Part shown: one piece after another, positions 49,681-50,011 of the stretch | Layout: every line of letters begins with the position of its first letter | Position numbering within the stretch: the first letter of the stretch is position 1 | Source: an uncultured bacterium | GTDB lineage: Bacteria; Babelota; Babeliae; Babelales; JACPOV01 | NCBI GenBank assembly: GCA_963744715.1 | Contig: CAVUUR010000012.1 | Coordinates: 32,001-96,000 of the forward strand | Direction: 5' to 3' | DNA length: 64,000 nt | Notes under the pieces: model-generated | What the model saw: the letters and a program-made list of their open reading frames with translations, nothing else | What the model was told of the DNA's origin: nothing | Database searches by the model: none | Translations under genes and position numbers: made by a program

Positions 49681-49953
49681 GGTGGAGGCCTATGGTTTCC
49701 CAAATATTACGATCAAGATTCTACATGCTTAGTCCTTCACTTTATATACCTGAGGAAAGACGCATAATTGGTATATACACTTGGTTTGTTTCCTACATTC
49801 AAACTACTGATCAAGTAAACCTTGCTTGAACGTTCTACTTTCTACGATTCAGGCTAAATTTGTAGAATAATCTGTTACCTGAAAAGAGTATTTTTTTTAC
49901 GAGTAATTGCTTAAAACCTCGTGCATGCTGGCTCAACCGTGTTTGAAGCCTCC
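49681..49953 (-). ncRNA. ssrA: tmRNA-like RNA with a degenerate tRNA-like domain
   Basis: 5' GGAGGCU pairs with 3' GGCCUCC-ACC. Helix 2: ACGGUUGAG/CUUGAUCGU and GCAUGC/GCAUGU. pk1-like ACGAG..CUCGU-AAAA. Tag ORF 49872-49849 GAU..GCC UGA = DYSTNLA* after GUAACA. Two further pseudoknots; GACUAAGCAUGUAG signature as in E. coli tmRNA. Confidence 0.85.
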
Positions 49954-49982
49954 GCAATTTTTACATATTTTCACTTAATTCT

Positions 49983-50011
49983 AGTATAGCATATATTATA
50001 AAATTTGTCAA
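49983..50011 (-). promoter_or_regulatory. Sigma70 promoter of the tmRNA-like gene
   Basis: TTGACA (50011-50006)-N17-TATACT (49988-49983); predicted start about 49976, about 23 nt before the acceptor-like stem. Confidence 0.8.

Follow-up and report, generated by a model that had tools for sequence, protein, structure and literature searches.

A second, very probably tmRNA-derived RNA of the Babeliales that lacks the message and tRNA-like domains

Background

The G3-U70 pair, the elbow, the CCA end and the tag of tmRNA are all needed for its charging and reading. Other parts of the molecule have partners of their own. In the available portions of the sources, ribosomal protein S1 binds the pseudoknot (PK) ring and EF-Tu.GDP binds deacylated tmRNA outside the tRNA-like domain (TLD) (PMC3968760), the contacts to uS3 and uS19 are made by pk2 and helix 2, respectively (PMC8363625), and the pseudoknot necklace together with H5 stops degradation, with a high-affinity in vitro SmpB site touching PK1 and PK4 and SmpB preferring the TLD in vivo (PMC4174442). 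According to the accessible text of PMC3968760, tagging suffers little when pseudoknots pk2-pk4 are replaced, and why tmRNA keeps them is an open question. The tag-less forms described in the available parts of PMC11915505 and PMC4131195 keep the TLD. Since the curation set out in the excerpted text of PMC11915505 rejects sequences deleted in the tRNA or CDS part, genes that retain only the ring would go unrecorded. Full-text searches, largely of literature outside the subscription journals, gave no description of a ring-keeping derivative without both domains; the supplementary database of PMC11915505 could list one of the copies reported here (that of genome G049).

Here, a 64,000-nucleotide stretch of a Babeliales genome (the window; GCA_963744715.1, contig CAVUUR010000012.1, positions 32,001 to 96,000) is analysed. 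It encodes an RNA that is very probably the product of a second, tmRNA-derived gene from which the message and tRNA-like domains have been lost. Both working domains are dropped in this RNA and the parts whose retention in tmRNA is open to question are kept.

Results and discussion

Structure of the window RNA

A first-pass annotation, made from the sequence alone, had placed a 273-nt tmRNA-like RNA behind a TTGACA-N17-TATACT promoter. The promoter is present (50011-49983), matches the consensus at eleven of twelve positions and is the top one of ten sites in the region, and the folding of the RNA (49681-49953, minus strand) is confirmed, with none of 200 shuffled sequences folding as well (MFE z = -2.81). 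The terminal stem, helix 2b-d and the pk3 and pk4 stems are as described in that annotation (Table 1). One of the four pseudoknots had been reported as missing; all of pk1-pk4 could be placed, and the absent part is the resume/tag/H5 domain. Stem 2 of pk1 is weak in the window copy and clear in the copies of G061 and G108. Standard tmRNA finders miss the RNA, as the first-pass annotation had suggested: neither ARAGORN nor RF00023 (gathering cut-off 47 bits) matched the window copy, and relaxed ARAGORN thresholds returned noise only. An antisense target was sought in the genome that carries the window; the longest exact match elsewhere was 17 nt, compared to 14-16 nt in 20 shuffles, with no clear target.

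The assembly carries indel-rich patches elsewhere, and the sequence of the window RNA was independently confirmed by RNA contigs. Among these patches, rpsA and the 5' part of alaS (C2:103600-105400 and C2:154700-155600) contain many frameshifts, which are most likely assembly indel errors rather than signs of pseudogenes. Elsewhere in the window, two tandem paralogous ORFs (39985-42127) code for proteins of 345 and 346 aa that are probably secreted.

Table 1. Window coordinates of the tmRNA-derived element, its parts and its neighbours
Feature	Position	Strand	Remarks
tmRNA-derived RNA without message domain and without functional tRNA-like domain	49681..49953	-	ends inferred from terminal stem; RNA contigs jointly span 49684-49939
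sigma70-type promoter TTGACA-17-TATACT, extended -10	49983..50011	-	-10 box ends 29 nt upstream of G1
Terminal (ex-acceptor) stem, 5' strand, with A3	49946..49953	-	partner 49684-49691
5-nt remnant at place of D-loop analogue (SmpB elbow)	49941..49945	-	
Helix 2	49923..49940	-	2b/c 49932-49940 with 49709-49717; 2d 49923-49928 with 49723-49728
pk1, then directly pk2 (site of message-domain deletion)	49884..49922	-	stem 1 49918-49922/49899-49903
pk2	49833..49883	-	S1 49875-49883/49848-49857; S2 49862-49867/49833-49838
Frame read as DYSTNLA*	49849-49872	-	inside pk2
pk3	49779..49832	-	S1 49824-49832/49796-49804; S2 49813-49817/49779-49783
pk4	49732..49777	-	S1 49770-49777/49743-49750; S2 49755-49761/49732-49738
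GAAA-capped 3-bp hairpin replacing T-arm	49693..49702	-	
Terminal stem, 3' strand, with ACC; U-rich run next	49681..49691	-	CCA not encoded
rplI (L9), divergent neighbour	50129..50575	+	outside element
AAA ATPase gene, downstream	48204..49502	-	own promoter-like site; neighbour different in other carriers

Loss of the message domain

The region initially read as a retained mRNA-like domain is pseudoknot 2, and the true message domain has been deleted. The segment UUCAGG-UAA pairs with UUA-G-CCUGAA, which places the UAA of the supposed resume context within pk2 S1, and the UUCUAC of the supposed tag hairpin has as its partner the second GUAGAA (49833-49838) and not the one first proposed. One RNA contig (depth 3.3, hence weak) carries a change at 49842 that would break the proposed tag hairpin and falls in the pk2 loop. 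The distance from pk1 to pk2 is 31-36 nt in six members of the family versus 77-230 nt in the 34 canonical tmRNAs measured, and helix 2d is separated from its partner by 196-206 nt in six members versus 250-350 nt in 61 canonical tmRNAs. The G049 copy can be aligned with RF00023 from end to end (57.1 bits), in which case the D-loop (an 11-nt segment) and the T-arm are deleted and 3 nt stand in for 59 model positions that follow pk1; in the G061 copy (46.6 bits; gathering cut-off 47), 50 model positions are reduced to 5 nt. In the family members, the interval from pk1 to pk2 contains neither a resume codon nor a tag ORF.

The DYSTNLA peptide is not conserved among relatives. The homologous frames read DSLTNLD, DSSTNLS, DYSTNLSWFEEK, GHPIDPKLTYKSG and CSPTSKGW, with the region absent in G023. 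Most of the changes alter the encoded residue and are compensated by a change in the paired base; the canonical tmRNA tags of the phylum mostly end in FA or AA. Five members have a UAA-NN context followed by a GAU-starting frame, which in four of these stops after seven codons, and we ascribe this to the common ancestry of the pk2 strand, which is paired. Two-sided changes affect 3/9 pairs of pk2 S1 and 4/7 pairs of S2 (six sequences). As a sequence-only profile of canonical pk2 matched none of the members, the homology of pk2 rests on position, topology, covariation, pairwise scores and the Rfam alignments. Pairwise scores against canonical pk2 give z values of 1.3-5.5 in six of seven members (0.0 for G049, where the compared segment was offset), and those for the message domain range from -2.0 to -0.1.

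Dismantling of the tRNA-like domain

The first-pass annotation was accurate on this domain: in the window copy A3-U70 replaces G3-U70, the D-loop is missing, the T-arm is reduced to UGG-GAAA-CCA and CCA is not encoded. The third pair is A3-U in six of the eight members, namely those with a full terminal stem, versus G3-U70 in all 62 canonical rows counted. A further compensated pair occurs in the terminal stem of G049, and this stem is lost in G040 and weak in G109. The D-loop analogue and T-arm, which form the SmpB elbow, are missing in the family. A vestige marks their place in the copy under study (G000) and nothing remains in G049 and G023, while GNRA-capped hairpins with compensatory changes replace both arms in G108 and in the metagenome contig L204. 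Profiles of the two tRNA-like ends (TLD5 and TLD3) matched 0/8 members. No member encodes a 3' CCA, although post-transcriptional addition would not be visible in the RNA contigs. With G3-U70, elbow, CCA and tag all gone, the RNA should be neither chargeable nor readable, and on established tmRNA biology it cannot be expected to be alanylated, to load SmpB at the elbow or to direct tagging. Because the tRNA-like end and the tag message are both lost, the role of the RNA is predicted to be something other than ribosome rescue.

Covariation, divergence and expression

Among four aligned sequences, 163 of 164 cells are paired and two-sided changes occur in 12 of 41 pairs, including two in helix 2b/c, which is fully paired in all four sequences; every tested helix except the invariant 2d has such changes. 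For pk2 and pk3 in six sequences, 97 % of the cells are paired and 14/29 pairs show two-sided changes (pk3: 5/8 in S1 and 2/5 in S2). None of 500 shuffles reached the observed values and slid registers pair at 32-42 %; the shuffling takes no account of relatedness, and its counts should not be read as p-values. In three pairs of genomes of family f15, the identity of this RNA and of canonical tmRNA, respectively, is 77.5 and 74.7 %, 73.5 and 72.2 %, and 87.7 and 86.8 % (same segment; shuffled baseline about 60 %). Over these genome pairs, divergence of the RNA does not exceed that of canonical tmRNA. The original view of a remodelled rather than decaying RNA is thus upheld, in that it is tmRNA-derived, transcribed and selected, with its tRNA-like domain dismantled.

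Of the 24 runs listed, 22, from 21 studies and all of them metatranscriptomes of soil, root or water, contain 22-49 % of the words in a 501-base query; the RNA accounts for approximately half of this query. Four runs, each from a different study, were compared over 4.5 kb and yielded contigs of 210-248 nt (49690-49929, 49710-49919, 49684-49931 and 49695-49939) with 99-100 % match, 0-2 differences and no gaps. These Illumina RNA contigs reproduce the sequence of the window RNA. No near-identical contig of the flanking genes was found in the four runs, which is weak evidence as the runs were chosen with this stretch. The contigs, which give neither exact ends, strand nor level, point to a discrete, stable transcript. 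The loose end of one contig (run X3, record 4, at 49771-49830) resembles the pk2 loop of another member and looks like a further expressed variant of the family.

Distribution, gene context and origin

Homologues were sought by blastn, motif scans and two covariance models, one of which (R2) was run on all 260 other genomes of the phylum. The element was found in 7 of 261 genomes, belonging to three families, and on the metagenome contig L204; with 27 to 104 candidates scored per genome this count is a lower bound. Each R2 match spanning less than 280 nt was inspected, and about a dozen longer ones were classified as canonical by length alone. The carriers comprise four of five genomes in family f15 (G040, G108, G109 and G023), 2/41 in f3 (G061 and G049) and 1/10 in f1 (G000). 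Helix 2 and the pk1-pk4 ring are present in the family, with the exception of the 132-nt G023 form (z -5.35; one assembly), which consists of terminal stem, helix 2 and pk4 only; the core common to all eight members is helix 2 and pk4. A TTGAC(A/T)-17/18-TAnnnT promoter lies 6-90 nt before G1 in 7/7 genomic members. Pattern scans, which are blind to the mini form and the G049 type, identified 26 loci in a genome-wide scan that reached beyond the Babeliales (four of them the element, all within the phylum, the rest canonical tmRNAs or chance), at least 113 loci in metagenomes (one member among the matches listed) and 26 loci in two viral scans (no members). No match to the element was found by blastn against phages and plasmids.

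The members occur in at least five gene contexts, and the next gene is convergent in G108, G023, L204 and G049, which together argue that the RNA is not cis-acting. No neighbouring gene shared across the contexts was found. The location upstream of rplI, where the first-pass annotation proposed to look for relatives, is not conserved, with the element absent in the 29 other rplI loci compared. Since an lnt-like gene directly adjoins rplI in three relatives, the AAA ATPase gene and the window RNA appear to have been inserted between these two genes; no att-like repeat was found around the element. The inserts at this junction (47630-50129) vary, with the AAA ATPase gene and RNA here, another gene in G002 and a tyrosine-integrase-like gene in G061. 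The G049 copy is followed closely by an apparently solitary tyrosine integrase gene and a Dps-like gene (L310:368-1333), and no signature of an island was observed there.

In a tree of 87 rows without outgroup, the seven full-size members form one group (support 99/99), G023 being left out as the segment is absent, and in a smaller tree the members are nested among the canonical tmRNAs of family f3. A grouping of the window copy with the canonical tmRNA of its genome was rejected by the AU test (p 0.018), while a local origin was not rejected for the f15 copies (p 0.064) or G061 (p 0.37). The data are most simply explained by a single origin and subsequent transfer, and the patchy distribution is probably the result of horizontal spread. 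Because the tree lacks an outgroup, an ancient duplication followed by many losses is possible.

Canonical rescue systems of the carriers

The genome from which the window derives (1.26 Mb, 86 % complete) encodes a canonical ssrA at C3:22311-22741 (134.9 bits), directly behind smpB, and the window RNA is thus a second ssrA-like gene. The canonical tag ends in AVAFA and, at 33 residues in the ARAGORN prediction, is long, as are tags of some other Babeliales tmRNAs. There is a single, normal SmpB (149 aa, with a C-terminal tail) and three RF-1 family genes, one of them ArfB-sized. These findings speak against the earlier suggestion that the window RNA serves as the tmRNA of the cell or as an alternative rescue system. 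An intact ssrA elsewhere, beside an unconserved and untranscribed copy, had been named as grounds for dismissing the element: the former exists, and the copy is conserved and transcribed. Canonical tmRNA is present in all seven carrier genomes, with one copy of smpB in each of the six searched. No TLD-only partner RNA occurs among the RF00023 matches of the G000 genome. HPF is present in this genome, and a 6S RNA search of it gave no match (control detected in only 5/14).

Two full-length tmRNA genes, 1-10 kb apart and with tags that differ in length, occur in G108 (L089), G164 (L094), G165 (L169) and G169 (L329/L330), and ssrA duplication is recurrent in the phylum. Three Saccharibacteria tmRNAs (L107, L114 and L116), missed by ARAGORN, apparently lack pk1 and have an odd T-arm.

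Possible functions

Very probably, a Babeliales ssrA duplicate has lost the resume/tag/H5 domain, the D- and T-loops, G3-U70 and CCA, has retained its own promoter, helix 2, a closing stem and the ring of pk1-pk4, and persists beside canonical ssrA and smpB as a discrete, stable RNA whose structure is under selection. The RNA may resist nucleases and serve in trans as a ligand or decoy for those parts of the translation apparatus that hold tmRNA by regions other than the tRNA domain; the main candidates are S1 and the 30S head (uS3 through pk2 and uS19 through helix 2). Translation capacity could thereby be damped or stored, for instance while these protist parasites are dormant outside cells, and rescue would not be poisoned, unlike with TLD-only RNAs. 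In combination with the identity of the RNA, this mechanism is put forward tentatively, at somewhat below even chances. That the family constitutes a new class of stable bacterial RNA exapted from tmRNA, a scaffold that E. coli can dispense with for tagging and that, freed from the tRNA and mRNA domains, has its own selected function, is passed horizontally between Babeliales families and regulates translation or dormancy as a stand-alone gene, is an evenly balanced proposition.

We infer a role as S1/30S ligand from the retention of the parts that other factors touch, the ring and helix 2, and tentatively rank it ahead of the alternatives. Several observations count against it: the G023 form is well folded without pk1-pk3, so that either the ring is dispensable or this copy is decaying; presence in only 7/261 genomes indicates a role that is not essential; the terminal stem is lost in G040 and weakened in G109; and H5, one of the main 30S contacts, is deleted. 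Next in rank, and doubtful, is an exapted scaffold or decoy for a partner outside trans-translation, such as a tmRNA-attacking ribonuclease or toxin, or an RNP protein reading the GNRA-capped arms. The compensatory changes in the GNRA hairpins of G108 and L204 and the patchy, probably horizontal distribution would suit such a partner, but the contexts share no neighbouring gene, the arms are absent in G049 and G023, and a Ro60/TROVE search of the 86 %-complete G000 genome gave no match. Ranked below this, as unlikely, is a buffer in which the closing stem, pk4 and helix 2, as a minimal core, store or titrate SmpB or EF-Tu.GDP via non-TLD sites and thereby tune trans-translation. Helix 2 and pk4 as the core of all eight members and the single smpB in each of the six carriers searched would fit such a role. 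The EF-Tu cross-links are taken to be located in pk4 and helix 2, positions for which a literature look-up gave no confirmation. The available text of the sources offers an in vitro SmpB site at PK1/PK4 (PMC4174442) and EF-Tu.GDP bound to deacylated tmRNA outside the TLD (PMC3968760) in favour of a buffer, and the in vivo preference of SmpB for the TLD (PMC4174442) against it. All three of these readings are ones that we infer.

A slowly decaying, functionless duplicate would agree with the patchy occurrence, the eroded ends in G040 and G109, the large deletion in G023 and the intact canonical system, and is nevertheless improbable given two-sided changes in all tested helices but 2d, identity equal to that of canonical tmRNA, the promoter kept in 7/7 members and RNA seen in 21 studies. 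It is more improbable still that the element is a cis-regulatory leader of the downstream gene. In G061, 13 nt separate the 3' CCUCC of the copy from the downstream GGAGG ribosome site belonging to an Hsp20-like ORF (family assigned by eye), but the downstream gene is convergent in four members and unrelated elsewhere, and the RNA contigs end inside the element. Scarcely credible, finally, is the tag-bearing, differently charged rescue RNA encoding DYSTNLA that was initially proposed: the UAA-NN-GAU context of five members and the seven-codon stop of four speak for it, but the homologous frames diverge with base-pair compensated changes, the UAA is paired in pk2 S1 and Rfam places the deletion at the tag domain. 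The family provides a natural reagent to find binders of helix 2 and the ring, with the 132-nt form delimiting the core more closely.

Comparison with known systems

Judged by the features that define a tmRNA, the window RNA is not one; it belongs to a tmRNA-derived RNA family. With the one-piece tmRNA of the Babeliales (SsrA, RF00023) it shares its ancestry, terminal stem, helix 2, the order of pk1-pk4, the pk4/helix 2d junction motif and a sigma70 promoter, but it lacks the resume codon, tag ORF, H5, D-loop, T-loop, G3-U70 and CCA, and is always a second gene, unlinked to smpB. Like the ssrA pseudogenes and island-displaced ssrA fragments treated in the available part of PMC4131195, it is an extra ssrA-like sequence that is rejected by finders; those sequences, as far as that part describes them, miss one end or decay in place, whereas the window RNA is complete at both ends, shows covariation, has a promoter and is transcribed, and no att-like repeat was found with it. 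The CDS-less TLD-only tmRNAs of mitochondria, Mallomonadaceae plastids and phage DS6A, as presented in the accessible portions of PMC11915505 and PMC4131195, are likewise tmRNA derivatives without a tag frame. They keep the TLD and drop the ring; the RNA described here, which has lost the TLD but retains helix 2 and the ring, forms their complement.
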